This document shows positions 4,227 through 60,688 of a stretch of 64,000 nt of DNA, in pieces. Origin of the DNA: Candidatus Woesearchaeota archaeon (GTDB taxonomy: Archaea > Nanobdellota > Nanobdellia > Woesearchaeales > UBA9642); the NCBI GenBank assembly GCA_016928115.1, contig JAFGLI010000019.1, forward strand, positions 5,066 through 69,065. The letters run 5' to 3'. The translations under genes were made by a program, and so were the position numbers. Positions within the stretch are counted from its first letter, which is position 1, and every line of letters starts with the position of its first letter. Below the pieces are notes generated by a model that had not been told where the DNA came from, searched no databases, and saw only the letters and a list, made by a program, of their open reading frames with translations.

Positions 4227-5261
4227 TTACTCATAAAAAAATTCTTTTAGATGTGGGTTTTCTTTTTTTAATATCTTCAATGATTTATATCTAAGCTGAT
4301 TTGCCCTTTCTCTTGAGATGTTAAATAATATTCCTATTTCTTCCAGAGTGTGTTGATTTTTCCCGTTTAAACCATAATAAAACTCAAGAATCTTTCTGTC
4401 TCTTCCATTATATTCTCCTCTTGATTCCAGTTTATCAAGGGCTTTTGAAAGTTCATCATGAAGCCTTTTTTTCCTGTAATCATCTTCAGGCATACTTTCT
4501 TCAACAGGAATAAGCTCGCTCCTTTCATCTCCTTCTTCATTAAAGGGGGATGATTCATCGAGTGAAACAAATTCTGTGAATGCCGCTTTCAGGGTATATT
4601 TGCTGTATCTTAAATCAAGCATTTCATTGATCTCATCAAGAGTGGGCTTATAGCCATACTTATTTATAAACTTCTTCTCTGCTTTTTTAACTAAACTTAT
4701 AGAATATGAAAGATTAGCAGGCATCCTGATTGTTCCAATCATTTCAGATATGTGCCTGTAAATACCTGATTTTAACCAAAAATCAGCATATGAAATAAAT
4801 TTTATCTCCTTGTATTTATTCTTATCCCTGAATTCTTTACAGTAATACTTTTCTGCAGCTGTTAAAACCTTCTCTAATCCTGCCTGTATCAAGTCTTCCT
4901 CCTGCAAGGACTCGTCTGGATTGAATTTGAAATAAATATCTCTTGCTGATTTTATGAAAAAAGGAATATTGCGGCTTACGAGTATGTTCTTTGATAATGC
5001 CTTTATATATTCTTTTGGAACATTTCCGTTTTCTGCTTTTTCCTCAAGTCCGATTTTTTCAAGAACTGAAAGCCCGGGGATTTTTTTAATGGCTGTTTTA
5101 AGATTAGTATATCTTCCAGGATTATCCCTTATGTAAGCTAACTTAATTTCCTCTTTTGGCTCCAATAGCTTCACATCTTTAAGATTGCCGTCCTTGAAAT
5201 CCTTAGGAACTAAAATATTTGATACCATTTTTATATAATCTTTACTATTAAAAAGTAACAA
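4227..5261 (-). CDS. Sigma-70 family RNA polymerase sigma factor homologue
   Basis: Region 2 'EEDLIQAGLEKVLTAAEKY...IKFISYADFWLKSGIYRHISEMIGTIRMPANL' resembles DLIQEGNIGLMKAVEKF...FSTYATWWIRQAITRAI...IRIP. Region 3 'KPTLDEINEML'. Region 4.2 'TLEEIGILFNISRERANQLRYKSLKILKK' resembles TLEEVG..F.VTRERIRQIE.KALRKLR. It has no TFB-like zinc ribbon or cyclin folds. Confidence 0.75.
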   Translation of the reverse strand: MLLFNSKDYIKMVSNILVPKDFKDGNLKDVKLLEPKEEIKLAYIRDNPGRYTNLKTAIKKIPGLSVLEKIGLEEKAENGNVPKEYIKALSKNILVSRNIPFFIKSARDIYFKFNPDESLQEEDLIQAGLEKVLTAAEKYYCKEFRDKNKYKEIKFISYADFWLKSGIYRHISEMIGTIRMPANLSYSISLVKKAEKKFINKYGYKPTLDEINEMLDLRYSKYTLKAAFTEFVSLDESSPFNEEGDERSELIPVEESMPEDDYRKKRLHDELSKALDKLESRGEYNGRDRKILEFYYGLNGKNQHTLEEIGILFNISRERANQLRYKSLKILKKENPHLKEFFYE

Positions 5262-12499: not shown

Positions 12500-12895
12500 A
12501 TGAAAATTGAACATTCCCTTCCTAAGGGAATTAATATGGGGGAAATAAAAGAAAAAAAGAACGATTACCAGAGAAAAATCGGTCTGGATATATTGCTGAC
12601 AAAAAAACCCATACGAAGAGACCAGAAAGGCATTAAATCACTAAAAGAGCTGGAGAGGATTCTGATAGAAAATGACTTCACCATAACATATATGAATGAA
12701 AGAAGAATTTTGAGGGTTCAGAGGATTATTCAGGGAATACGCGAAGAAAGAACTGATTATCCGACTTTTTACACTATAAAAATGGGGAATACGCCCAGGC
12801 ACATAAGACTAAGGGTAAAAAGCCCCATAAACAACAAAGACCCCGAGAAGCTTGTGGATATTTTATCTGAGTATGTTAAGCATTTATACAGATAA
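12500..12895 (+). CDS. Hypothetical protein, tandem paralogue A
   Basis: 131 aa; shares 'IGLDILLTK...ITY...RLRV...PE.LVDILSEYVKHLYR' with the adjacent ORF, whose counterparts are 'ISLDLLLTK...IEY...RLMA...LLEISSKFVKSLYK'. Confidence 0.5.
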   Translation: MKIEHSLPKGINMGEIKEKKNDYQRKIGLDILLTKKPIRRDQKGIKSLKELERILIENDFTITYMNERRILRVQRIIQGIREERTDYPTFYTIKMGNTPRHIRLRVKSPINNKDPEKLVDILSEYVKHLYR

Positions 12896-12915
12896 AAAAT
12901 AGAAGGCGATTAAAA

Positions 12916-13281
12916 ATGTATGACGATATAAAAAAACTTTTTCCTGAAGAAGTTAAAATCAATAAATGGGTGGAAAAAGTAGGCGAAAGTGAAAGGGATA
13001 TAAGCCTGGACTTATTGCTGACAAAAAACCCTGTTTGTAATATTAAATTACAGGAACTGCTGACAGAAGAAGGATTTTATATTGAATACAAGGATGAGGC
13101 AAAGCTAAGAAGCCAGGAAATCTATGAAGGAAGATCCTATAAAGAAATGGGACTGACTTCATACAGAATAATAATAACAAACAACTCGTTAAGGCTGATG
13201 GCTCACGGACAGAAAAAGAATAAGGGGCCAGATGTGCTTTTAGAAATTTCTTCAAAATTTGTAAAAAGTTTATATAAATAA
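12916..13281 (+). CDS. Hypothetical protein, tandem paralogue B
   Basis: 121 aa; paralogous to 12500..12895. Confidence 0.5.
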   Translation: MYDDIKKLFPEEVKINKWVEKVGESERDISLDLLLTKNPVCNIKLQELLTEEGFYIEYKDEAKLRSQEIYEGRSYKEMGLTSYRIIITNNSLRLMAHGQKKNKGPDVLLEISSKFVKSLYK

Positions 13282-16252: not shown

Positions 16253-16555
16253 CTATTTTTTATACTTCATAACTAAATAAGTTATAACAACAGAAAAAAT
16301 AATTAAGATAATCAAACTTAAGTTCAGATATGTTAATCCTACTCTTGCATAATGAGATATATAATGGTCTTCTAATTGATCAATTCCCATAGAAACTCTT
16401 ACATTTCCAAAATAAAGAAATGCTAATCCCCAAGGTAAAATAAACATTGCCCAAAAGAATGCTGTTGTTTTAAATATCTTTTTAATTATATTAGTCATTT
16501 TATTCCTGATTAGATTAAATAATATAAATAATTTATGAAATTGGGATTTTTTCAT
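16253..16555 (-). CDS. Small 2-TM membrane protein
   Basis: Two hydrophobic helices; co-oriented with 15768..16229. Confidence 0.35.
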   Translation of the reverse strand: MKKSQFHKLFILFNLIRNKMTNIIKKIFKTTAFFWAMFILPWGLAFLYFGNVRVSMGIDQLEDHYISHYARVGLTYLNLSLIILIIFSVVITYLVMKYKK

Positions 16556-16587
16556 AAATTTTTTAAATAATCTTTATTTACCCCCTT

Positions 16588-17160
16588 ATGGGGGTTGATA
16601 ATATGAAAAAAATAATGTTTTTAATTTTTATTCTTGCTATTTTATTAATTAGTGGGTGTGCTTCACCTACATACACAAAAGATAATTCTCAAGAAACAAG
16701 CAACCAACAAACAAATACTCAAGAAGAAATAGAACCTAAAGAAAAAGAAATCACTTATATAAGCCTATTGTGGCCCATATCTAAAAACTGGGATTCAGAT
16801 CCGGAAGTAGATGGTATAGAAATAGATTTAACACCATATACAAAAAATGATGAAATGGTTGAAACAGAAGGAATAGTTGAAGTAAAACTATGGGAATATA
16901 CCTGTACTGATTATTCAGAAATGCTTGAAATGTGTATAGAAAAGGATTGTGTTAAATCTGAAGATGCCCTATTAGAAGAATGGAATGTTCCTCTAAAGAA
17001 AGAGGATTTTGATTTTATGGGTGCTACTATAAGAGCAGAATATGAAAAATATGATCCTACAGAAGACGAAAGAAATTATCCACAGGGGTGTATACTAGTA
17101 ACATTAAAAGCCCAGGATAAAGAGTTTTCAGCAGAGGAAGATTCAGTAAGTTTGAAATAA
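16588..17160 (+). CDS. Putative lipoprotein (acidic)
   Basis: Signal peptide ending in the lipobox-like LISGCAS; highly acidic mature region. Confidence 0.5.
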   Translation: MGVDNMKKIMFLIFILAILLISGCASPTYTKDNSQETSNQQTNTQEEIEPKEKEITYISLLWPISKNWDSDPEVDGIEIDLTPYTKNDEMVETEGIVEVKLWEYTCTDYSEMLEMCIEKDCVKSEDALLEEWNVPLKKEDFDFMGATIRAEYEKYDPTEDERNYPQGCILVTLKAQDKEFSAEEDSVSLK

Positions 17161-20563: not shown

Positions 20564-21304
20564 ATGAACGGGGTTAAGGTATTTCCGGGGAACTTAAAGG
20601 ATATTGTTGATAACCACTTCTTTAAAAAGAAAAATAACAGCATTAACATCTATGACTTCAATAATGAAGAAAGCATAACTGCATTTATAGGGGATGCACT
20701 GGATTTTCACAAAAATTATATAAAAAACAAGTATGAATTCGGGCTGGATAATATAAGCCTCAAAACAGGCGAAAAAAAGGAAGGCTTGGTATATCCCCAG
20801 CATTCTGATGATGAATATTACCTTTGCATCAACCTTCCGCGAATAAAAAAGATACTTGAACACAAAAAAAGGGAGCCTTTCTTCAAGTGCATAAGCCTTG
20901 TTGAGTACAGCGTAATAAAAAGCTATTTCCATAACTCACTCTATGACCTTTTCCAGAACAGGATTATTATAGACCACACCAAAAAAGAGCTTTTCGGGAT
21001 TTTTGATCCTTCTGAAAAAGAAAATAACATCAACATAAAAAAAATAACAAGATTCTTCGGAAGGGTAAAAGACCCATTAAGCGTGAAGTACATAGAGGAA
21101 TACTGCAGCTCAGCAAGAAAAGAGCTGGAAAAAAGAAAGAATGAAGATAACAAAACCAGCGTAAACATGCTGAACCACCACCTGAACTGCCTTCATTCAA
21201 TGACAAGCAAACTGCACTCATCCAAAAGCATGTATTTTGAAAGAAGCTTTGATGAGATTATAAACTTCATAAAGCACCCGGACATTATAGATAATTTAAT
21301 CTAA
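20564..21304 (+). CDS. Hypothetical protein
   Basis: 246-aa ORF, divergent from 19857..20546; no recognised motifs. Confidence 0.4.
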   Translation: MNGVKVFPGNLKDIVDNHFFKKKNNSINIYDFNNEESITAFIGDALDFHKNYIKNKYEFGLDNISLKTGEKKEGLVYPQHSDDEYYLCINLPRIKKILEHKKREPFFKCISLVEYSVIKSYFHNSLYDLFQNRIIIDHTKKELFGIFDPSEKENNINIKKITRFFGRVKDPLSVKYIEEYCSSARKELEKRKNEDNKTSVNMLNHHLNCLHSMTSKLHSSKSMYFERSFDEIINFIKHPDIIDNLI

Positions 21305-21670
21305 ATACTTCTTAACTTCATTCCTAAGAATCCCTTTGCTTCTTAATCTTAAATTCTCCCATTTTTCTCCATATACAGAATATACTTCAGAAGCATCTTC
21401 CCCTAAAAGAATCCTGTTTTCAAGGTCTGCAAAATGAGTAACTGCTACTAATTCAGGCGTATAACCTTTGGGATAATTCTTCTTAAAATCCTTAAAAATC
21501 TTGTCTCCAAGATAATTATAACAATCTGAAGATGAAGGGACTAATAACTTAAAATAATTTTTATTGCATTTTAATCTTATTTCTTCAAGGTCTTTCACAG
21601 GTTTTTTGTTTAATATATCTCTTACTGCCTCGAAATATGGCTTGAAAATCTCCTTTTGTTCTTTATTCAT
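21296..21670 (-). CDS. Hypothetical protein, tandem paralogue (the start is placed at the internal Met 'MNKEQKEIFKPYFEAV', so the ORF-track N-terminal extension is not used)
   Basis: The region from the MNKEQ start onward aligns with the upstream paralogue (…YFEAVRDIL…DLEEIR…FADLENRILLGE…S.G…LR.EVKKYLD). The longer ORF would overlap the neighbour by about 150 nt. Confidence 0.45.
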   Translation of the reverse strand: MNKEQKEIFKPYFEAVRDILNKKPVKDLEEIRLKCNKNYFKLLVPSSSDCYNYLGDKIFKDFKKNYPKGYTPELVAVTHFADLENRILLGEDASEVYSVYGEKWENLRLRSKGILRNEVKKYLD

Positions 21671-21686
21671 TATTATCCTCTGTATT

Positions 21687-22115
21687 TTAATCCAGATATC
21701 TCTTAACTGCTCTCTGAAGAATTTTTCTGCCTTTGGACCTTGAATGCTTCCAGTATTCTCCCGGACTGAAATATGCTTCAGAAGGTTTTTCTCCCATAAG
21801 AATCCTGTTTTCAAGGTCTGCAATGTTTCCAATTCTAGTATTTACTGATTCAGGATCCAATCCTTTTAGAAAGTATCCTTTTTGTTTATCTAACAAACGA
21901 TCTCTTCTAGCAAGTTTTGCTCCTAATTCAATAGGATAAAAATAATCCCAGAAACGAAGTTTATTTTCATTTAATTCTACTTGTATGAGATATTTATTAA
22001 CTTCTTTTCTTTTTTCTTCAAGGTCTTCCACAGGGTATCCGCTTAATATTATCTTTACAGCCTTAAAATAAGGCCTTAATATTTCCCTGGTTTCCCTGTC
22101 AATTATTTCTGCCAT
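21687..22115 (-). CDS. Hypothetical protein, tandem paralogue
   Basis: 'ILRPYFKAVKIIL...DLEEKR...IADLENRILMGEKPSEAY...KILQRAVKRYLD' is paralogous to 21296..21670. Confidence 0.5.
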   Translation of the reverse strand: MAEIIDRETREILRPYFKAVKIILSGYPVEDLEEKRKEVNKYLIQVELNENKLRFWDYFYPIELGAKLARRDRLLDKQKGYFLKGLDPESVNTRIGNIADLENRILMGEKPSEAYFSPGEYWKHSRSKGRKILQRAVKRYLD

Positions 22116-22172: not shown

Positions 22173-22799
22173 CTAATTCTTTAAGCTATCCTCACTTAAA
22201 CCCCTGCCAACTGCTTTTGAGATTATCTTAAAATATTCTTCTCCGCCATGTAAAATAAGATTGTTCCTTGCTGTCTCTTTGCCGTAATTCTCTTCATTAT
22301 TCAGCAGCATTTCCAGAAACTCTTTTTGCTTAAAAACATAAATGTGTATAAACGGAATGCTAATTTCACACTTATGCCTCAATTCAGAGTATATTCTTTT
22401 TTTATTAAAAGAATCATCACATACAATAACCAAGTCAAGGTCTGATTTTTTAGTCTCTTTTCCCTTAACATAGCTTCCTGTAACCAAAGCAATAAAAAAC
22501 TCAGTAGGCATTTTCAGAAAAACATCCTCAATCTCATCAAAAGGAATATTCTTTCTTGAAAAAGCAATATGCTCTGCAATAAACCCAAGATAAGCAAAAC
22601 TCTTAACATTAAACTTTAACCAATACTGAAAAACATTCCCTATTTTGTTCCTTCTCAAAATACCTTTATCCAAGAGCCTCTTTATCCTGCTGTAAACATA
22701 ACTTCTTGAGCTATATCCTTTCATAATGTCCTGAAAGCCAAAACCTTTCCAGGGCTCTTCAATAAAACATTTCAGTAATTTATATTCTTGCTTTAGCAT
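22173..22799 (-). CDS. Nucleotidyltransferase (MNT-type, Pol-beta superfamily) with an N-terminal wHTH
   Basis: 'GSYVKGKETKKSDLDLVIVCDD' is a GS...D.D nucleotidyltransferase motif; the N-terminal 'SRSYVYSRIKRLLDKGIL' is wHTH-like. Confidence 0.6.
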   Translation of the reverse strand: MLKQEYKLLKCFIEEPWKGFGFQDIMKGYSSRSYVYSRIKRLLDKGILRRNKIGNVFQYWLKFNVKSFAYLGFIAEHIAFSRKNIPFDEIEDVFLKMPTEFFIALVTGSYVKGKETKKSDLDLVIVCDDSFNKKRIYSELRHKCEISIPFIHIYVFKQKEFLEMLLNNEENYGKETARNNLILHGGEEYFKIISKAVGRGLSEDSLKN

Positions 22800-22846
22800 T
22801 TTAATACCTATTTTTAGATATAATCCTTCCTATATTTAGGAAATAT

Positions 22847-23320
22847 TTAAATCTTTCTATTTACTTTAAAAATATTAGAAACAAATGTTCTGGCATTTTT
22901 AAGAGAATCTTCTGCAGGCTTCTTATTTGCCTGAGGAATGGTCTTATAAGTAAAGTGCCCTCTTTTCCATTTTTCTTTTTTGAAAATTTCCAGCAGCTCA
23001 TCAGCCCTTAATATTAATTTATTGTAAATATTTAACAATCCTAAATCGAGCTCTCCACTATCAACAAGAAATTTCTTAAAATTCTCATATGTTTTTCTGT
23101 GAATTTCGGGAGCCTTTGTTTCTATTCCTTTATTCAGAAGAATAGATTTGGCAGCATAAAAAATAGCATAATAAGAATGGGAAATAACTGAACTGTAAAA
23201 TGTTGTATTCTCAGGGATATTAAATACCTCTTTATAGTTTTCACTTAATTTTTTCAAACATTCTGCAGTTATAATCTCATTATCTGCCCTGTCCAGATAA
23301 ATTCTTGCTTTTGGTTTCAT
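22847..23320 (-). CDS. HEPN-domain protein, partner of the MNT
   Basis: 'ISHSYYAIFYAAKSILLNKGIETKAPEIHRKTYENF' fits the HEPN fold signature (hayyA..ha.kAlL...g......H); the gene is immediately upstream of the MNT gene. Confidence 0.5.
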   Translation of the reverse strand: MKPKARIYLDRADNEIITAECLKKLSENYKEVFNIPENTTFYSSVISHSYYAIFYAAKSILLNKGIETKAPEIHRKTYENFKKFLVDSGELDLGLLNIYNKLILRADELLEIFKKEKWKRGHFTYKTIPQANKKPAEDSLKNARTFVSNIFKVNRKI

Positions 23321-32425: not shown

Positions 32426-32866
32426 ATGGCAGAATATAAATCTGGACTGGTTCTTTTATTGGAAGCAAACGGTGCAACAGAAGAAGATTGTGAGGGAGTA
32501 GATAATATATGGAGAGAAAAGAGATTTCGTTCAGGAGAATATCCCATTGGAGGATTGGCTAAATTTATTGATAAAAGAATAGACTCTTCAAAAATAGATT
32601 TTGGACCTTTTTCTTATGACGACTGTCTGTTCCTCCTTCTTTTAGGAAAACCAAGAATAATACCTCATGCATTACAGGGTAAAATAAAACGTTTTAGGAA
32701 TGTAGGGCTTACCACTCCTTACTTGTATTCTGATGGAAAAGTTAGAGAAGGTACCACTAAAGGTGGATGGGATTATTTAGACTTTGCTTTTCATGTAATG
32801 GGCTTAGCAAACCAGTTTAAAATTCTTCGTGAGTTAAAATATCTAAAGCCTAAAATGTCAAAATGA
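32426..32866 (+). CDS. Hypothetical protein, tandem paralogue A
   Basis: 'AEYKSGLVLLLEANGATEEDCEGVDNIWREK...FHVMGLANQFKILRELKYLKPKM' compared with the neighbour's 'EEYESGLVRILKENGATEEDCKGVDNIWREK...FHQMGFFATRKFFRELKYLRSKM'. Confidence 0.5.
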   Translation: MAEYKSGLVLLLEANGATEEDCEGVDNIWREKRFRSGEYPIGGLAKFIDKRIDSSKIDFGPFSYDDCLFLLLLGKPRIIPHALQGKIKRFRNVGLTTPYLYSDGKVREGTTKGGWDYLDFAFHVMGLANQFKILRELKYLKPKMSK

Positions 32867-33237
32867 TGAATGAAGAATATGAATCTGGATTAGTTAGAAT
32901 ATTAAAAGAGAATGGGGCAACAGAAGAAGACTGTAAAGGAGTAGATAATATATGGAGAGAAAAGTATGGTCGTCCAAAAAAGAATGCTATATTTACATAT
33001 CACGACCGTCTGATTCTGGGAATTGTAGGTTTTATTAAAAAACCAAAAAAAATTCCCTGGGAAATCTATAAAGAATTTTCACTATATATACCTGAGGATG
33101 CTGATTTAGATAATGTTACTATTCTCTCTAAGATGGGGTATGAGTTATTAGAATTTGATTTTCATCAAATGGGATTCTTTGCAACCCGTAAGTTCTTTCG
33201 TGAGTTAAAATATCTAAGGTCTAAGATGCTCTTATAA
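32863..33237 (+). CDS. Hypothetical protein, tandem paralogue B
   Basis: Paralogous to 32426..32866; 4-nt start/stop overlap. Confidence 0.5.
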   Translation: MMNEEYESGLVRILKENGATEEDCKGVDNIWREKYGRPKKNAIFTYHDRLILGIVGFIKKPKKIPWEIYKEFSLYIPEDADLDNVTILSKMGYELLEFDFHQMGFFATRKFFRELKYLRSKMLL

Positions 33238-38429: not shown

Positions 38430-38525
38430 TTGAATTATAATAAATTAAACAGGAAAATCTAAATATACCAGCCATATTTATCTATTCTGAAAAAATAACC
38501 ATAATTTACGAAAACTAAAAGTTTT

Positions 38526-38612
38526 CTAAGTTAGGAAATTCACCTGGAATTTCCGTAACTTAGTAAAACCAAAGGTTTTTCAAGTTCGAAAATGTCCCAT
38601 TTTCGTAACTTT
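38526..38612. repeat. Two bulged-hairpin repeat elements (locus A of a family shared with 48.4-48.57 kb)
   Basis: ctaagttaggaaattc-acctg-gaatttccgtaacttag (38526-38563) and aagttcgaaaat-gtccc-attttcgtaactt (38582-38611); each stem carries a single-base bulge. Confidence 0.55.
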
Positions 38613-38653
38613 TATAAATCTCTTAAAAATACCAAAAAATAGGGTGATGTCAA

Positions 38654-38908
38654 ATGGTAATAAGTCCGAAGGAAGCATCTGAACTTACTGAATATGAAAA
38701 AGAAAAAATTTCAGAACTGGAAGAAGAAATAGATAATACAATAATGAATGATTATATTCCATCTAAAAACAACGTAGTTTACTTTTCACTAAAAGAAGTT
38801 ACACCAAGAATAACAGAAACTTTAAAAGATATGTATGGAAAAGCAGGATGGGAGGTTGATTATAATTGTGAACAAGGATTTGAAAGTCTTGAATTCAGAA
38901 CAAATTAA
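38654..38908 (+). CDS. Hypothetical protein
   Basis: 84-aa acidic ORF downstream of the hairpin repeats. Confidence 0.35.
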   Translation: MVISPKEASELTEYEKEKISELEEEIDNTIMNDYIPSKNNVVYFSLKEVTPRITETLKDMYGKAGWEVDYNCEQGFESLEFRTN

Positions 38909-38932
38909 TAATATAAATAAGGTGATGCTAAA

Positions 38933-39346
38933 ATGATTATAGGATTTAATTTTACAAAAATATCTGCTGAAAAAAAGGGAAACCCGAAAGGGAATATCAA
39001 GGTAAAAAACAATATAACCATAACAGATGTTGATGAGTCAAAATCAAACATTGGAAAAGGGAAAAAAGCAGTTAATTTTAAGTTTAAGTTCAGCTCAGAA
39101 TTTAACCCTGATATAGGGTCAATAGAGATTGAGGGCAATGTTGCTGACCTAACAGATGAGAAAGATTCCGCGAAGTTAGTGAAAGAATGGAAGAAAAACA
39201 AGAATGTCACAAAAGAATTCGCAGCAAGAATCCTCAGCAAAGCATTAAGGGAATGTTCTGTGGAAGCAATTACACTAAGCAAGGAAATGAATCTGCCTTC
39301 ACCTGTTCCTTTGCCTAAGATTGAAAACAAAGGGGCTAAAAAATAA
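38933..39346 (+). CDS. Hypothetical protein
   Basis: 137-aa ORF, 24 nt downstream of the previous gene. Confidence 0.4.
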   Translation: MIIGFNFTKISAEKKGNPKGNIKVKNNITITDVDESKSNIGKGKKAVNFKFKFSSEFNPDIGSIEIEGNVADLTDEKDSAKLVKEWKKNKNVTKEFAARILSKALRECSVEAITLSKEMNLPSPVPLPKIENKGAKK

Positions 39347-39387
39347 ATCCTGATTTTTAAATCAGGATATGATATAAAGGGGTAATT

Positions 39388-41676
39388 ATGATAGATAATA
39401 AAAAAACTTTAAATCTGAAAGTTGCAGAAGCTGTCCAGGATGATGTAAATAAAGGAATAGTCAGGATAGACAGAAACTTTATGAAGAAGATAGAAGCAGA
39501 TCCCGGCGACATAGTTGAACTGGAAGGAAAAAAGAAAACCGTCGCTATTGTGGACAGGGCTTATCCGGGCGACATCGGGCTTGAGATAATAAGAATGGAC
39601 GGGCTTATAAGAAGAAATACAGGCTCATCAATAGGAGAAAGAGTTAGAGTAAGGAAAACCGAAGTAAAAGAGGCAAAAAAAGTTGTCATTGCACCCACAA
39701 GAGAGGGTGTAATGATAAAGGCCAGTTCAACATTTCTTAAGCAGGGACTTTTGGGAAGGGCTGTCTCCCAGGGAGACATTGTTTCATGGGGAGGAACCAA
39801 AAGCAGGAGGACAACAACAAGCCAGAACCCTTTCTTTGAGGATGTATTCAGCATGCTTGACAACACATTATTTGACTTCGGCTTGGGAGACATCAAGTTC
39901 ATAGTGGCGAAAACAATGCCTAATGAGCCGGTTATAATAACTGAAACAACAGAAGTAGAGTTTATATCAGAGCCAATAAAAGAGATTGAAAAAGGGGCAA
40001 TACCTGAAGTCACTTATGAGGATATTGGTGGTTTGGATGAGGAAATAAAAAAAATAAGGGAGATGGTGGAATTACCTTTAAAACACCCAGAACTTTTTGA
40101 AAGACTGGGTATTGAGCCGCCAAAAGGGGTTTTACTTCATGGTCCTCCGGGAACAGGAAAAACCTTATTGGCAAAAGCTGTAGCCAATGAATCAGATGCT
40201 CATTTCATATTAATCAATGGTCCTGAAATTATGTCCAAATACTACGGACAAAGCGAGGAAAACCTCAGAAAGAAATTCGAGGAAGCGCAGAAAAACGCTC
40301 CTTCCATCATATTTATAGATGAGATTGATGCTATTGCAGGAAAAAGAGAGGAAACCAAAGGTGAGGTTGAGAGAAGGGTTGTTGCACAATTGCTGACAAT
40401 GATGGACGGCCTGGAATCAAGGGGAAAAGTTGTTGTCATAGGGGCAACAAATATCCCAAATTCACTGGACCCTGCCCTGAGAAGGCCCGGAAGGTTTGAC
40501 AGGGAAATCTCAATAAGGGTCCCAAGGGAAAATGACCGGGAGAATATCCTTAAAATCCATACCAGAAATATGCCTCTTGACAAAGACATAAACCTGAAAA
40601 AAATCTCAAGGATAACACACGGCTTTGTTGGAGCTGATTTATCTGCACTGGCAAAAGAGTCTGCAATGATAGTGTTAAGAAGAATATTCCCGGATATTGA
40701 GCTGAGCAAGGAAGAGGCACTTTCAGAGGAAACGCTGAAGAAATTAAAGGTTACGATGAAAGACTTTATGGATGCCTTAAAGAGCATCACACCTTCGGCA
40801 ATGAGAGAAGTAACTATTGAAAGCCCCAATGTGCATTGGGATGAAGTGGGGGGATTAAAGGAAGTTAAAGAAGAACTTGAGGAGACACTTGAATGGCCAT
40901 TGAAAAGAAGAAAGGCTTTTGAAAGATTAAATGTCAAGCCGCCAAAAGGCGTATTGCTTTATGGTGCTCCGGGAACAGGAAAAACCTTATTGGCAAAAGC
41001 CGTAGCTACAGAAACAGAAGCTAATTTCATACTGATAAAAGGCCCTGAGTTGTTAAGCAAGTGGGTTGGAGAAAGTGAAAGGGCTGTAAGAAAAATCTTT
41101 GAAAAAGCAAGGCAGTCTTCACCATGTATAATCTGCTTTGATGAAATTGATGCAATTGCACCAAGAAGGGGTGTATCTGCAGACAGCCATGCTACTGAAA
41201 GAGTAATAAACCAATTGTTGACTGAAATGGACGGGCTGCAGCCTTTGAACGAGGTCATGATTGTTGCAACAACAAACAGGCCTGATATTATAGACCCTGC
41301 ATTTTTGAGACCTGGAAGGTTTGATAGGATTATCCATACAGGGGTTCCTGACAAAAAGGCAAGAAAGGCTATTTTTGAAGTACATACAAAAAACATGCCC
41401 CTGGCTAAGGATGTTGATTTAGATAAATTGGCTGAAAAAACAGAGAACTATGTGGGCGCAGACATTGAGGCAATATGCAGGGAAGCAGCAATCTTTGCCT
41501 TGAGGGAAGATATAAAAACCAAAAATATCAAACTAAAACATTTCCAGGAAGCCATGAAAAAAGTAAGGCCTTCAGTAACAAAAGAGATAGAAGAGTCCTA
41601 CAAAAGGATAAAAGACCATTTCACACAGGCCAAGGCAAAGGAAATGAAGGAAAAGATGCCTAATTATTTTGGATGA
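39388..41676 (+). CDS. cdc48: CDC48/VCP-like AAA+ ATPase (N-domain plus tandem D1/D2 AAA modules)
   Basis: Two Walker A motifs ('[15 protein letters not shown]' twice), Walker B 'IIFIDEIDA' and 'IICFDEIDA', SRH regions, and an N-terminal double-psi barrel region. Confidence 0.9.
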
Positions 41677-47144: not shown

Positions 47145-47399
47145 TCATAAATCTCTGTAAACGTTCTTTCTATGTCTAATTAATGTAACTTCAATCATTT
47201 GTTTGTCTTTATTTATATCTGCTATAACTCTGTAATCTCCAACTCTTAATCTGTAGTCTTTTCTTCCTTTTAGTTTTTTAAAGAAATGAAATGGTTTTTT
47301 CTTTGTCGAGATAATCTTTTCAAAAATTCTTTTCTTCTTTTCATGTGGTAATTTATTTAATTCTTCAATTGCTTTTTCATCAAAAATTATCTCATACAT
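47145..47399 (-). CDS. RelE/ParE family toxin
   Basis: 'KGRKDYRLRVGDYRVIADINKDKQMIEVTLIRHRKNVY' is the canonical RelE/ParE C-terminus. Confidence 0.8.
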   Translation of the reverse strand: MYEIIFDEKAIEELNKLPHEKKKRIFEKIISTKKKPFHFFKKLKGRKDYRLRVGDYRVIADINKDKQMIEVTLIRHRKNVYRDL

Positions 47400-47407
47400 A
47401 TAAACAC

Positions 47408-47644
47408 CTATAAACCCAATCTTTCTTTGGCTTCTTTTTCAGTAAGAAAATTACCTCTTTTTATTCTCTCTCTTGCTTTTTCTATGGCTTCAACTGTTTC
47501 TTTACTAAGTTTAGGGTTTTCTTTCATATTTTCAGCTATGAATATTACCTTCTTCAAAACCTCGTCATAACTTTCATTTTTATATTCCCTAAACTTATCT
47601 AGCTGGTTTTTTGTATCATCATGTAGCTTTATTGTTGTAGTCAT
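47408..47644 (-). CDS. Cognate antitoxin
   Basis: 78 aa; 'TIKLHDDTKNQLDKFREYKNESYDEVLKKVI' is antitoxin-like (a ribbon-helix/VapB-type family); 8-nt gap to the toxin gene. Confidence 0.6.
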   Translation of the reverse strand: MTTTIKLHDDTKNQLDKFREYKNESYDEVLKKVIFIAENMKENPKLSKETVEAIEKARERIKRGNFLTEKEAKERLGL

Positions 47645-47765: not shown

Positions 47766-48365
47766 CTACTCAGACATGAAATCCTCAACAGTATAATCAA
47801 ACTTCTGTATCTTCTGCTTCAAGCCTTTTTTCTCAAGATAAGTTTTAGCTAATAACCAGAAAAACAAAGCCAATGACTTCCTTCCCTTATTATTGCAGGG
47901 CATTACAAGGTCTATATCATTGGACTTATTGTTGCTGTCGCAAAGTGCAATCAGGGGAATCCCTATTTTCTCAGCATCCTCAACAGCATTTTTATCAGGC
48001 CATGGGTCTGTAACCATCAGCAGCCTGGCTTCCCTGTAAATATCAAGATTAGGATTGGTTAATAATCCAGGAGGGTATCTTCCTGTATATACCTTTATTC
48101 CAGTAATCTCGCCAAATAATTTAACAGCCTTCCATGAGCTTTCCCTTCTTGAGAATATTAAAACTGATTCAGGCTCATATTGGGATAAAAGATTAACCAC
48201 AGACCTTATTCTCTTGTCTATCTGCTGGACATTCAGAACAGATAACCCATCAGGCCTTGTCTGGAAAATAAACTTCTCCATATGTTTAGTCTTGAATTTA
48301 GTCCCTATATGTATCCCTGACTTAAGATATTCATCTTTGGGTATTAATAATTCCTTTTCTTTCAT
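47766..48365 (-). CDS. rps2: 30S ribosomal protein uS2 (archaeal/eukaryal type)
   Basis: 'LLIPKDEYLKSGIHIGTKFKTKHMEKFIFQTRPDGLSVLNVQ' and 'IALCDSNN...VMPCNNKGRKSLALFFWLLA' match archaeal S2/SA. Confidence 0.85.
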   Translation of the reverse strand: MKEKELLIPKDEYLKSGIHIGTKFKTKHMEKFIFQTRPDGLSVLNVQQIDKRIRSVVNLLSQYEPESVLIFSRRESSWKAVKLFGEITGIKVYTGRYPPGLLTNPNLDIYREARLLMVTDPWPDKNAVEDAEKIGIPLIALCDSNNKSNDIDLVMPCNNKGRKSLALFFWLLAKTYLEKKGLKQKIQKFDYTVEDFMSE

Positions 48366-48401
48366 ATAAATAGGGAAAAATGAAGTATTTAAAAAGGTTA
48401 T

Positions 48402-48566
48402 GGAATTTGGATGCCAAATTCCAAACTTAGAAAATATTCTATTTTCGTAAGTTACGAAAATTTATTGTAAATAAATTTTCTAACTTAGGAAACGCTCTGT
48501 GTTTCCGTAAGTTACGAAATTACCGAGTAATTTCTAACTTGAAAAACGTTCCGTTTTACTAAGTTA
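48402..48566. repeat. A perfect 9-bp inverted repeat (ggaatttgg-atg-ccaaattcc) followed by three bulged-hairpin repeat elements (locus B; same family as 38.5 kb)
   Basis: aacttagaaaat-attct-attttcgtaagtt (48424-48453), taacttaggaaa-cgctctgtg-tttccgtaagtta (48481-48514), taacttgaaaaacg-ttc-cgttttactaagtta (48535-48566). Confidence 0.55.
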
Positions 48567-48656
48567 TGGAATTTTCTCTTTATAATTTGATATTTTTTTA
48601 ATTACATATACTATTAAATAGTAACATTTAAATAAAAAACAGATATTCTTTCTCAT

Positions 48657-49184
48657 ATGAATAATTTAGAAGAGATTCTGGATGATGTAGTTATAAACGG
48701 CTTTCCTGAATTTATGGATGAAGATATCTGGATAGAATATAAATCAATTAAAAAAAGTCTTCTTAAATCAGGAGAATTAACAGACGAAGGTTTTTATATT
48801 GAAGTTGATAATTTATTAAAAGATACCTCTGCTAATGTGATAATGGGTGGGGTGGCTCATGAACTTGCCCATTTAGTAACAGAAAGGAACTTAAGCAAAT
48901 ATTCTTCCAAAAAAGATGGACTTCATTATAAAAGATCAAAAAGATATAAAACTCTTGACGAAAGAGATACTGATTTAAGAGCAATTCTAAGGGGTTATGG
49001 TCCACATCTGTTAGAGTTTATGAAATATTCTAAAGAAAAAGGATTCCCTTATTATAAAAAAGACGGCCTTTCTATAAACGAAATTAAGACTTTATTAAAA
49101 ATTAAACCCCATAAGAATTTATTTTCACCATTTATCCTACTTTACAGAAAATTACGAACAAAAAATAAATCTTTTATTATTTAA
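48657..49184 (+). CDS. Putative Zn-dependent metallopeptidase (HExxH)
   Basis: 'MGGVAHELAHLVTERN' holds the only convincing motif, an HExxH. Confidence 0.4.
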   Translation: MNNLEEILDDVVINGFPEFMDEDIWIEYKSIKKSLLKSGELTDEGFYIEVDNLLKDTSANVIMGGVAHELAHLVTERNLSKYSSKKDGLHYKRSKRYKTLDERDTDLRAILRGYGPHLLEFMKYSKEKGFPYYKKDGLSINEIKTLLKIKPHKNLFSPFILLYRKLRTKNKSFII

Positions 49185-51768: not shown

Positions 51769-54261
51769 TTATTTGTTCTGGATTTTATCTTCTTCCAAAG
51801 AATCTTCGTGGTCTTTTTCCTTTATTATGGCAACATCCCTGACCTTATCATTCTCATTTAAGGACATAAGCCTTACTCCCTGTGTGTTCCTGCCTATTGT
51901 TGAAATCCTGTCACAAGAGGTCCTTATCAAAATGCCCTCTTTGCTTATCAGCATTATCTCATCATCCTCTTTCACAGACTTTACGCCGATAACATTGCCG
52001 TTTCTCTTGCTACATTTAATGTTAATAACTCCTTTGCCTCCCCTATGGATAATCCTGTAATCATTAATTTTTGTTTTCTTTCCATAGCCGTTTTCAGTAA
52101 CAGTCAATAATTTTTTATCCTCATCAGCAATTACCATACCTATAACTTCATCATCTTTCTTAAGCCTTATGCCTATAACTCCATGGGTGTTCCTGCCCGT
52201 AGGCCTTACATTATTTTCATCAAACCTTATTGCATGCCCTTTCTTTGTTGCCAGGATTATATCCTTATTGCCGTCTGTAAGGACAACATTTACCAAATCA
52301 TCATCTTTATCCAGATGTATTCCTATAATCCCTCCCTTTCTTGGCCTTGAATACTGTTCAAGAGAAGTCTTTTTCACTATTCCTTTTTTTGTAGCCATTA
52401 CAAGATAAGAATCTTCTTTAAATTCCTTTACCGGAATCAGGGCCATTATCCTGTCTTCAGGCTTTAACTCAAGGAAATTTATTATGGGCTTGCCTTTTGC
52501 ATATCTCTCAGATTCAGGTATTTTCCAGACTTTGAGCCAGTAAGCAATACCTTTGTCTGAAAAAATCAGCAGATAAGAATGGGTATTTGCAACAAAAAGG
52601 TGCTCAATAAAGTCACCTTCCCTCAGGTCAGAGGCTATAATCCCTTTTCCTCCGCGATTCTGGACCTTATAATTCTCAAGGGACATTCTTTTTATATATC
52701 CTGAATTAGTCATTGTAACAACAACAGGCTCATCCTCTATTAAATCCTCAATCTGCAAATCATCTTCTTCCTCTGCAATTATTGTTTTTCTTTCATCCCT
52801 ATATTTTTCCATTATTTCCTTAAGCTCATCTTTTATAATGGATTTTATCCTTTCCCTGCTTGAAAGAATCTCGTTTATTTCCTTTATTTTTTTAATTAAG
52901 CCGTCAAACTCATCCTTTATCTTTTTCTGCTCGATTGATGCAAGCTTCTGCAATTTCATGTCAAGTACAGCATCTGACTGAATCTTGCTAAGGCTGTATT
53001 TCTGCATTAATTTTTTTTCAGCATCTTCTCCTGAATCAGAATTCCTTATCAGGCTTATTATATCATCAACATTCTTTAATGCTGTTATCAGGCCCTCCAA
53101 TATATGAACCCTCTCTTTTGCCTTTTTAAGCTCATAATTATTCCTTTTTATCACAACATCCTTCCTATGGTCAACATAATGCCTTATGCACTCTTTCAGG
53201 CTCAGCCTCTGCGGCTTTTTTCCCACAAGGGCGACCATATTTATTGAAAAACTATCTTCTAATCTTGTTGACTTGAACAATATATTTTTTACAATTTCAG
53301 GGTTTGAATTAGCCTTAAGCTCAATAACTATCCTCACACCATCCTTGTCAGACTCATCCCTTAAATCGCTTACTTCAGTTATTTTCTTGTTTTTCACAAG
53401 GTTTGCAATCTCTTTTATAAGGTCGGACTTATTAACTTCATAAGGGATCTCTTTTACAACCAGTATTTCCTTATTGCCTTTTTTCTCAATATCAATTAAA
53501 CTTCTTATCCTGATAATTCCATGCCCTGTTTTATAAGCACTAATAATGCCGTTCCTCCCGCATATAATCCCTCCTGTCGGGAAATCGGGGCCTTTTATTA
53601 TTTCTATTAACTCAAGAATATCAATATCCGGATTATCAATATATTCTATCGTGCCCTCGCATATCTCCTTAATATTGTGGGGGGGAATGTTTGTTGCCAT
53701 GCCAACCGCAATTCCCGAAGAGCCGTTAATCAATAAATTAGGAATCTTTGAAGGCAGCACCTCAGGCTCTTTTAAAGAAGCATCAAAATTATCATTCCAT
53801 TCAACAGTCTCTTTGTCTATATCCTGGAGCATCTCCTGGCTTATCTTCGCCAATTTTACTTCAGTATATCTCATTGCAGCCTGCTTATCACCATCTAAAC
53901 TACCCAGATTACCCTGGCCTTTAACCAATGGGTATCTTAAAGAAAAATCCTGGGCCATCCTTATTAAGGCATCATATACAGCCTGGTCTCCATGGGGATG
54001 GTATTTTCCAAGAACCTCTCCCACAATCCTTGCTGATTTCTTTGTTGCCTTATTATAAGTTAATCCCATGTCATGCATTGCATAGAGAATCCTCCTATGT
54101 ACTGGTTTTAAGCCGTCTTTTACATTAGGCAAAGCCCTGCCAACTATTACAGACATGGCATAATCTATGTAAGAGGACTTCATTTCATCCTCTATTACTT
54201 CATTTATGACCTCTTTCCCAAGGATTTTTTCCCCCTGATTTTCCTGTTTTTTATCCCCCAT
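51769..54261 (-). CDS. gyrA: DNA gyrase subunit A
   Basis: '[27 protein letters not shown]', active-site 'AAMRYTE', and C-terminal beta-pinwheel repeats (…HRGGKG…); 830 aa. Confidence 0.9.
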
Positions 54262-60400: not shown

Positions 60401-60688
60401 TCAGTCCTCGCTTTTTGGTCTCCATTTATATACTTCATCATGGTGGCCATAAAAATATATATCCACTTTTTCTTCAGAATGGTCTATTTTGAAAATTAAC
60501 ACAAAGTGTTTATCTATATGAACTCTATTAAATGTTTGTAAGGGTTTTCTTAAGAATTTGTAATTGTGTTTAGGATTGGATCTTATCTCTCTAATTTTCT
60601 TATCAATAATTTTAAGATGGTTTAAATTTTTCTTTGCTAATTTATGAAAAATCTTATCCGCTTCTGGCTTAATGTCAAGAAAATACAT
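60401..60688 (-). CDS. RelE/ParE-like toxin
   Basis: 'KFLRKPLQTFNRVHIDKHFVLIFKIDHSEEKVDIYFYGHHDEVY' fits the RelE-fold C-terminus. Confidence 0.55.
   Translation of the reverse strand: MYFLDIKPEADKIFHKLAKKNLNHLKIIDKKIREIRSNPKHNYKFLRKPLQTFNRVHIDKHFVLIFKIDHSEEKVDIYFYGHHDEVYKWRPKSED

Follow-up and report, generated by a model that had tools for sequence, protein, structure and literature searches.

The DNA analysed here, a stretch of 64 kb from contig JAFGLI010000019.1 of a Candidatus Woesearchaeota archaeon (hereafter the window, whose coordinates are used throughout), has a G+C content of ~32% and carries two intergenic arrays of near-palindromic boxes. Locus A lies between taw1 and an operon that comprises an 84-amino-acid (aa) open reading frame (ORF), a 137-aa ORF and the gene for the AAA+ ATPase CDC48. 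Locus B separates rps2, the minus-strand gene for archaeal ribosomal protein S2 (aS2), from an ORF for a 175-aa HExxH protein. In addition to Taw1, CDC48 and S2, the window encodes GatD, a THUMP methyltransferase, apgM and GyrA. The arrays are real, highly ordered, lineage-specific and promoter-fused; in kind, we take them for arrays of upstream regulatory sites with an additional structural layer. The element looks undescribed.

Together, the two loci contain 12 boxes (five in locus A and seven in locus B, Table 1), each built on the core TAASTTA with TTYC and GRAA flanks. In long (L) boxes, TTYC-N-TAASTTA-N-GRAA, an additional base stands on either side of the core; both are missing from short (S) boxes. 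Written as TTCGTA-[AST]-TACGAA, the L box has a core of 15 bp (17 bp with its flanks), while the core of the S box, TTCTA-[AST]-TAGAA, measures 13 bp. Arrays of 5 or 7 boxes follow the layout L-(S-L)n, and L and S boxes alternate without exception in the window and in all related arrays. The central base of the core alternates between G and C in step with L and S, again in the window and in every related array. Box centres are spaced 23-33 bp apart, mostly 25, 27 or 29 bp. Each array has a polarity, with a complete L box at its distal end and, at the other, a half L box joined to a TATA box. A box scan of the window found no single boxes outside the two arrays in the 64 kb, and the two-box pattern TAAGTTACGRAA-N5-22-TTYCTAACTT had three matches in the window versus 0.00 expected.

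Promoters, TATA boxes and transcription starts were assigned by prediction from the sequence. In all seven distinct arrays (those of related genomes included), one end is a half box TTYC-N-TAAS that is directly fused to TTTWTAAA, 30-43 nt ahead of an ATG. Half box and TATA box read TTCCATAAC and CTTTTTAAA at rps2 of the window and of its relative L004 (also in L002b and, with G for A, in L006), TTTCGTAAC and TTTTATAAA at locus A and in L104, CCGTAAC and CTTTATAAA in L002a, and TTTCGTAAG and CTTTATGAA in L008. A distance of 30-43 nt from TATA box to start codon is the geometry of leaderless or short-leader archaeal mRNAs. Since the TATA box of rps2 lies 30 nt before the start codon, its mRNA is predicted to be leaderless, and the position of the fused TATA boxes places the arrays upstream of the predicted transcription starts. 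Elsewhere in the window, promoters show equal TATA-to-ATG distances, but the place of the half box is taken by an A-rich stretch. We therefore rejected the half box as a general B recognition element (BRE), as the remaining window promoters carry an A-rich one.

The first-pass annotation had placed both loci directly upstream of plus-strand genes, at 38654 and 48657, and locus B also upstream of the divergent rps2. The array of locus A is fused to the TATA box of the operon at 38654. At locus B, the fusion is with the TATA box of the minus-strand gene rps2, and a separate TATA box at 48627, ~54 bp beyond box S6, serves the gene at 48657. Array B thus belongs to rps2, and the HExxH gene is, by this arrangement of predicted promoters, probably not its primary target.

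Table 1. Arrays, boxes, adjoining genes and predicted TATA boxes in window coordinates. Boxes of locus A are numbered A0 to A4 and those of locus B S0 to S6; L and S in the first column denote long and short boxes.
Feature	Positions	Strand	Box centre	Sequence or context
Locus A	~38497-38618			between taw1 and the 84-aa/137-aa/CDC48 operon
Box A0, distal L, degenerate	38497-38513		38505	core TAATTTA at 38502-38508, then C-GAAA
Box A1, S	38523-38537		38530	TTTC-TAAGTTA-GGAA
Box A2, L	38551-38567		38559	TTCC-G-TAACTTA-G-TAAA
Box A3, S	38577-38591		38584	TTTT-CAAGTTC-GAAA
Box A4, promoter-proximal half L	38601-38612	+	38609	TTTC-G-TAAC, runs into the TATA box
TATA box of the 84-aa/137-aa/CDC48 operon, predicted	38611-38618	+		TTTATAAA, 43 nt before the ATG at 38654, with a GGTGAT Shine-Dalgarno-like motif between
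Operon downstream of locus A	38654-41676	+		84-aa ORF 38654-38908; 137-aa ORF 38933-39346; CDC48 AAA+ ATPase 39388-41676
rps2, archaeal ribosomal protein S2	47766-48365	-		gene whose predicted TATA box is fused to array B
TATA box of rps2, predicted	48388-48395	-		TTTTTAAA, 30 nt before the start codon at 48365
Locus B	~48388-48571			between rps2 (-) and the 175-aa HExxH ORF
Box S0, promoter-proximal half L	48394-48405	-	48397	TTCC-A-TAAC (minus strand), fused to the rps2 TATA box
Box S1, S	48419-48433		48426	TTCC-AAACTTA-GAAA
Box S2, L	48443-48459		48451	TTTC-G-TAAGTTA-C-GAAA, perfect 17-bp palindrome, 0 mismatches
Box S3, S	48477-48491		48484	TTTC-TAACTTA-GGAA
Box S4, L	48503-48519		48511	TTCC-G-TAAGTTA-C-GAAA
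Box S5, S	48531-48545		48538	TTTC-TAACTTG-AAAA
Box S6, distal L	48555-48571		48563	TTTA-C-TAAGTTA-T-GGAA
175-aa HExxH protein	48657-49184	+		adjoins the distal end of array B; own predicted TATA box at 48627-48634

Complementary spacers between the boxes

These loci had originally been described as five copies of a bulged hairpin. All five are present (A1-A2 and A3-A4 at 38527-38612; S1-S2, S3-S4 and S5-S6 at 48423-48566), but the list was incomplete: five further hairpins are interleaved with them (A0-A1, A2-A3, S0-S1, S2-S3 and S4-S5), and every adjacent pair of cores folds. The single unpaired base in the 3' arm, reported as a constant of the family, occurs in all five original hairpins, but in the interleaved five the bulge sits in the 5' arm. 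The reported unit is partly a register artefact, and where an L box pairs with an S box, the extra base of the former appears as the conserved bulge.

Folding of the two loci as single-stranded DNA confirmed a strong hairpin potential, with -42.5 kcal/mol for locus B (z = -9.6) and -26.5 kcal/mol for locus A (z = -7.1). None of 200 shuffles folded as well as the two loci. In the minimum-energy fold all spacer hairpins are simultaneously possible, and the cores form linkers of 7-9 nt. Perfect hairpins with a stem of at least 8 bp number 19 in the window, where shuffles give 6.7; roughly half of them fall within the two loci. A general richness of the genome in hairpins was rejected as an explanation, because hairpins elsewhere in the window are near the shuffle level and the excess is confined to the arrays.

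Each inter-box spacer is a near-perfect palindrome, usually with a 3-nt loop (exactly 3 nt in 24 of 32). After stripping the conserved arms from these 32 spacers, we compared the remaining interiors. They differ in sequence, yet are complementary at 119 of the 135 possible positions (88%), compared with 15.9 ± 4.7 expected from shuffles, where the observed value was reached in 0 of 20,000. A formal pair count was performed on nine distinct 32-nt modules with 126 pair cells: 5 of 14 pairs had changed on both sides (15 cells), and one-sided (G·U-type) changes numbered 0. The covariation score was 0.357 versus 0.115 ± 0.032 (0 of 500 shuffles as high), and pairing collapsed when the partner columns were slid by 1-3. 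The spacers bear the clear signature of complementarity, rather than sequence, being maintained between the boxes.

Searches of Rfam with the arrays gave no match at the gathering or the permissive threshold, and a known RNA family was rejected on this result. The lack of G·U-type intermediates, the 3-nt loops and the empty Rfam search indicate that the complementarity belongs to the DNA duplex and not to RNA. As a test for RNA, we also considered whether G·T and A·C mismatches differ between the strands; this was dropped, as the mismatches were too few and showed no consistent strand. The boxes themselves are two-fold symmetric, a property that pairing between neighbouring boxes does not need.

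Related arrays and their target genes

When one genome per species was scanned with the exact two-box pattern (185,579 species), seven loci were found: four in the metagenome-assembled genome (MAG) CAZQLC01, one in the Woesearchaeota MAG JABMPP01 (L008), and two chance loci, which are single hairpins in MAGs labelled bacterial. The pattern loci of CAZQLC01 (L002-L006) lie on four contigs, which carry five arrays in all. Its S2 is ~93% and its 137-aa protein 88% identical to those of the window. Judged by its proteins, CAZQLC01, which is labelled 'uncultured Methanosarcinales archaeon', is a sister Woesearchaeote; the taxonomic label looks wrong, given protein identity and synteny with the window. 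A relaxed scan of metagenomes added five true relatives (L012, L016, L022, L062 and L104). Its other matches were discarded, as they were mostly chance single hairpins and an unrelated attC-like repeat family. This family consists of a ~130-bp repeat (…AACAGCGGTTTTGCGCTATTGCTGC…TAAGTTATGAAATTACG…GACGTTA) that recurs every 0.7-5 kb in L028, L053, L068, L082 and related metagenome contigs; it resembles integron attC sites of gene-cassette arrays and contains one matching hairpin. Viral contigs yielded zero pattern matches, and a viral or mobile origin was rejected on that ground.

According to Pfam, the genes fused to arrays encode aS2; S19e, L31e and a proteasome β subunit; an HVO_2753-type zinc-finger protein and aEF-1β; an OapA-like GTPase with OapB and OapC; Sec61β and NAC; and the 84-aa/137-aa/CDC48 operon. 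In L008, CDC48 itself stands directly behind the array. CDC48 is a target in the window, in L104 and in the distant L008. By these annotations, the predicted targets form a coherent set for translation, protein biogenesis and proteostasis.

Arrays with an equal box count occupy orthologous positions in L004 and L022 (rps2) and in L104 (CDC48 operon). The boxes are conserved across the seven distinct arrays, also between genomes whose CDC48 is 71% and whose 137-aa protein is 41% identical; in L003, the fifth box is degenerate, near the contig end. The distal box A0 (CCATAATTTACGAAAA) recurs in L104 and L006/L016, and a module identical to that of box S0 is found in L004, L002b and L006. In orthologous arrays, box number and boxes are identical and some spacers differ. 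The A1-A2 stem, for example, which is GGAATTTC/GAAATTCC on the plus strand of the window, reads GAAAATCC/GGATTTTC in L104, with two pairs changed on both sides. Some differences between orthologous arrays are replacements of whole modules. Furthermore, identical or near-identical modules are common to non-orthologous arrays, often as the same stem with a different loop, which links the arrays by duplication or recombination at the conserved boxes. From these comparisons, the loops are the fastest-changing part of the arrays.

Five more distant Woesearchaeota (137-aa protein 40-47% identical) had no arrays near the 137-aa gene or CDC48. One of these five, L131, is without an array at its CDC48 promoter; by CDC48 identity to L008, it (80%) stands nearer than the window (71%). 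Similarly, four rps2 outgroups (L134-L137, S2 65-68% identical) had no array at rps2. In these genomes, a TATA box is followed by a leader of 120-190 nt and the TRAM-LigT-S2 synteny is conserved; relative to them, the window lineage has the HExxH gene and an array between LigT and rps2. With long leaders in the outgroups and a predicted leaderless mRNA in the window lineage, the regulatory region of rps2 appears to have been remodelled. Outgroup L134 has a half box and TATA box without an array (TTTCCATAAC-ATTTAAAAA). Footprinting beyond the sister MAG was precluded, because the orthologous loci of distant Woesearchaeota are array-free.

Two further observations concern these comparison sequences. 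The upstream region of rps2 in L134 (2690-3003) also contains a long GC-rich inverted repeat at ~2740-2830. In L131, a 300-bp intergenic stretch between gatB and the threonine synthase gene (16440-16740) holds about eight consecutive near-perfect hairpins of unrelated sequence, for which Rfam gave no family at threshold; the stretch may represent either a comparable cluster of hairpins or an RNA that is so far undescribed.

Interpretation of the arrays

We read the arrays as a lineage-specific composite promoter element that acts at the DNA level, upstream of the transcription start, with a dimeric, possibly Lrp-like regulator bound, and we put the chance of this at about even. The conservation and symmetry of the boxes, their fixed TATA register, the coherent targets and the absence of stray boxes point to a sequence-specific, two-fold-symmetric reader at promoters. 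The Watson-Crick-only covariation and the missing Rfam match argue for a DNA element and not an RNA. Binding sites for a dedicated protein had been among the initial suggestions, and this is the option that the evidence favours, but no such protein was found among the window ORFs scanned.

In mechanistic terms, the last half L box would replace the usual A-rich BRE and abut the TATA box in fixed register. A two-fold-symmetric protein, possibly an oligomerising one of the Lrp type or feast/famine regulatory protein (FFRP) type, would occupy the boxes, and the copy beside the TATA box would help or hinder the assembly of TBP and TFB; the array sequence is compatible with either activation or repression. 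In this way, the arrays could co-regulate the operons for aS2, S19e-L31e-proteasome β, zinc-finger/EF-1β, OapABC, Sec61β-NAC and CDC48. The cruciform potential of the self-complementary spacers would either belong to the mechanism or have arisen as a side product when template-switch 'palindrome correction' acts between inverted boxes that lie close together. Template switching between inverted repeats (quasipalindrome correction) is an established mutational mechanism. Acting between close inverted boxes, it would turn unconstrained spacers into palindromes down to a minimal loop and, by analogy with quasipalindrome correction, would produce the G/C alternation too. Functional cruciforms and template-switch by-products may be non-exclusive explanations of spacer complementarity, L/S alternation and unphased spacing.

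Lrp-type proteins oligomerise over several sites; an activator of this type, Ptr2, works from a pair of sites located immediately upstream of the TATA box. The sites of archaeal FFRPs are palindromes of 13 and 15 bp that follow the scheme abcde-WWW-e'd'c'b'a', with several sites possible per promoter, and the LrpA site, which has [AGA/TCT] at its centre, is a precedent for G/C in the central triplet (PMC2715240). Both the S box TTCTA-ACT-TAGAA (5+3+5) and the L box TTCGTA-AGT-TACGAA (6+3+6) fit the scheme abcde-NNN-e'd'c'b'a' of Ptr2, FL11, LrpA and Ss-LrpB (PMC2715240). As in those systems, several sites per promoter stand directly upstream of or overlap BRE and TATA box, and a dimeric reader is implied. 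In contrast, the arm sequences differ from every FFRP consensus in PMC2715240. That paper reports no L/S alternation, palindromic spacers or half box fused to a TATA box, and we know of none of these in FFRP systems; the window ORFs scanned include no FFRP gene. Like operator arrays, the loci combine symmetric 13-15-bp boxes with a fixed BRE/TATA position and coherent targets, but helical phasing was not found.

Several results weigh against a regulator-bound element. No Lrp/AsnC-type gene was detected with Pfam among the ~58 of 88 window ORFs that were scanned. The 84-aa ORF, which looked lineage-restricted in an indexed search, was rejected as the box-binding protein after an exhaustive search returned ~40 distant homologs; its AlphaFold model (predicted local distance difference test score 79; helix + β-α-β-β) had no significant match in the PDB and no recognisable DNA-binding fold. 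Box spacing varies over 23-33 bp, mostly in 2-bp steps, and helical phase is not conserved, which would be unusual for cooperative binding to B-form DNA. Moreover, a plain operator model leaves the complementarity of the spacer interiors (88%) and the L/S alternation unexplained. Both the hairpin modules common to non-orthologous arrays and the patchy distribution, with no array at CDC48 of L131 nor at rps2 of the four outgroups, would fit a spreading element too, and the transcription starts are predictions.

The structural layer could itself be the working part. The hairpins would then be cruciforms extruded by supercoiling that serve as a sensing switch or buffer, or they would be read by a structure-specific protein that recognises bulged hairpins; we consider this unlikely. 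Supercoiling would be supplied by gyrase and by transcription of strongly expressed genes, with the boxes as stem bases or linkers of the extruded form. Such a role would account for the spacer complementarity (119/135 versus 15.9 ± 4.7), the 3-nt loops in 24 of 32 spacers, the covariation by Watson-Crick pairs only (5/14 two-sided, none one-sided) and the single-stranded folding scores (z = -9.6 and -7.1) of hairpins that can all coexist, and variable box spacing would become irrelevant once the spacers are extruded. Full-length GyrA is encoded in the window (51769-54261, minus strand), so that this DPANN archaeon is presumably able to introduce negative supercoils. The A3-A4 stem of locus A extends as far as the TATA box edge, and the pairing register chosen could expose or occlude this box. 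However, conservation and two-fold symmetry of the boxes would still require a sequence-specific reader, conserved bulges and short AT-rich stems make extrusion costly, and complementarity could arise without selection via template switching; cruciform extrusion at these loci is a proposal drawn from the sequence. A more specific version, in which 4-6 cruciform hairpins are fused to a TATA box and their extrusion state (two pairing registers, one at the TATA edge) reads gyrase-dependent supercoiling, seems to us decidedly unlikely. The early promoters of phage N4 offer a parallel, with short DNA stems and 3-nt loops at promoters whose formation depends on negative supercoiling. There, one hairpin is itself the promoter for the phage RNA polymerase, whereas here 4-6 hairpins stand upstream of an ordinary archaeal TATA box and their extrusion is hypothetical. 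If the arrays did work in this way, a supercoiling readout would tie ribosomal, translation-factor and proteostasis operons to the energy state of the cell. This would make them an archaeal functional counterpart of the supercoiling- and Fis-controlled ribosomal promoters of bacteria, resting on another principle, in a DPANN archaeon with a reduced genome and few regulators.

The resemblance to repetitive extragenic palindromes (REPs), bacterial interspersed mosaic elements (BIMEs) or miniature inverted-repeat transposable elements (MITEs), also raised in the first-pass annotation, stands in form but fails on the defining features that can be tested. The arrays share with REPs and BIMEs short imperfect palindromes, regular spacing, an extragenic and lineage-specific occurrence and hairpins (here of 30-40 nt) that fall into two size classes, strictly alternate in orientation and have a conserved bulge (cf. 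PMC2817692). A family of this kind, spread by recombination or by an enzyme that recognises hairpins (REP-associated tyrosine transposases, RAYTs, or an IS200-type Y1 transposase), with promoters carried or captured by chance, would also explain the (near-)identical modules in non-orthologous arrays, whole-module replacement between orthologous arrays, the patchy distribution among Woesearchaeota and the insertion of array and HExxH gene between LigT and rps2 relative to the four outgroups. We nevertheless regard it as improbable. In REPs, which are palindromes of 20-40 bp, one stem end bears an unpaired head of conserved sequence, GT(A/G)G or CGTC. They form dispersed families of many copies, singletons and dimers among them, lie near 3' ends, between convergent or co-directional genes, are transcribed with G·T pairs in their stems, typically flank the gene of their RAYT, and are described in bacterial phyla only in the surveys (PMC3733652, PMC2817692). 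Here, GTAG, GTGG and CGTC heads number zero on both strands of all eight array sequences, and all arrays stand at 5' ends in fixed TATA register, none between convergent genes. While the whole stem of a REP is conserved, the inner stems of the arrays vary and only stem bases and linkers are conserved; the stems are without G·T pairs. Copy number is low and there are no single copies, the boxes being confined to two arrays within 64 kb. The target set is coherent, with CDC48 targeted in two distant genomes. MITEs are elements of defined extent with terminal inverted repeats, a target-site duplication on their flanks and differing presence among relatives. Here, we found no consistent target-site duplication or flanking direct repeat, orthologous arrays have the same box number, and length is 5 or 7 boxes and not fixed. 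Among the ~58 window ORFs scanned with Pfam there was no Y1 transposase, viral contigs gave no match, and the exact pattern matched only 5 of the 185,579 species-representative genomes, two of the matches being the single chance hairpins.

Action of the arrays as RNA, be it as a structured 5' leader (as had been suggested), a small RNA, or terminator or stabiliser hairpins for the upstream gene, is very improbable. It would draw on the strong hairpin potential and on a co-directional gene whose 3' end precedes the array in locus A and in L002. Yet the arrays lie upstream of predicted TATA boxes 30-43 nt from start codons, and array B has on one side rps2, whose transcription leads away from the array, and on the other a gene with its own promoter. 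None of the 126 pair cells shows a one-sided change, the loops are mostly 3 nt, and Rfam is empty. We give almost no credence to the boxes being origin recognition box (ORB)-like sites for Orc1/Cdc6, although they are dyad-symmetric, inverted and set in AT-rich DNA, and one array of the sister MAG lies upstream of oapABC ('origin-associated protein' genes). Archaeal origins occupy one or a few loci per genome, by orc1/cdc6, and flank an AT-rich unwinding element. In contrast, at least five arrays occur in one MAG and two within 10 kb in the window, no orc1/cdc6 gene stands beside any array, and every array is promoter-fused. CRISPR arrays consist of identical direct repeats of ~24-47 bp with unique spacers about as long in between, accompanied by cas genes or a leader; 15-17-bp boxes that alternate in orientation, palindromic spacers of 8-19 bp and no cas gene nearby rule this out.

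To our knowledge, almost nothing is known of gene regulation in DPANN archaea, and for no archaeon do we know of a described promoter element dedicated to the genes of ribosomal proteins or of proteostasis. A full-text search of the literature for comparable archaeal promoter arrays found nothing relevant. The Phr motif differs from the array boxes. Phr/HSR1 of Euryarchaeota resembles the present case in that a palindromic operator precedes a CDC48/VAT-type AAA+ ATPase (VAT1) and other proteostasis genes (PMC10746257). Unlike the arrays, however, the Phr sites are single promoter-overlapping operators, and the gene set here includes those for ribosomal proteins and EF-1β, which do not belong to the heat-shock genes.

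What distinguishes the element is a fixed grammar, L-(S-L)n plus half box plus TATA box, at a small, coherent target set. If a protein reads the boxes, they define a new regulon and a handle to find its regulator; if the hairpins matter, they would be a natural case of cruciform-dependent promoter control. At 110-190 bp, the element is a concrete, synthesisable test object. It also warns that a BIME-like repeat architecture can arise at promoters without the hallmarks of REPs and RAYTs.

Neighbouring genes and other features of the window

Several genes beside the arrays deserve mention. The 137-aa ORF (38933-39346) is 100% identical to JW949_03820, a protein of a Candidatus Woesearchaeota MAG, which places the organism among the DPANN archaea. 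Its family is without a Pfam model and has 36 homologs, confined to Woesearchaeota and Nanoarchaeota, with CDC48 usually adjacent or near; the protein may be a CDC48 partner. Between the stop codon of this ORF and CDC48, 34 nt ahead of the CDC48 ATG, lies a 22-bp palindrome, ATCCTGATT-TTTA-AATCAGGAT (39347-39368), which is centred on a TATA-like box TTTTTAAA. Possible roles are that of an internal operator covering a second promoter and that of a terminator hairpin. The HExxH protein matched no Pfam or NCBIfam family and is fast-evolving: its version in the sister MAG (L004, 384-1364) is a 326-aa tandem duplication of the domain, each half of which is 42-47% identical to the 175-aa protein of the window, while S2 is ~93% identical. 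In the four outgroups, the gene is missing from the position beside rps2.

Elsewhere in the window, a 333-aa protein (4227-5228, minus strand) has as its sole Pfam match a C-terminal helix-turn-helix of the Sigma-70 region 4 type, an unusual putative DNA-binding protein for an archaeon. Three toxin-antitoxin-like loci comprise ParE with DUF7557 (47145-47644), a HEPN/nucleotidyltransferase pair (22173-23320) and a HigB-like toxin (60401-60688); the ParE/DUF7557 pair lies directly downstream of rps2, as it does in the sister MAG. Finally, we noted three tandem pairs of paralogous small ORFs of no known family (12500-13281, 21296-22115 and 32426-33237), with 32-39% identity within a pair.

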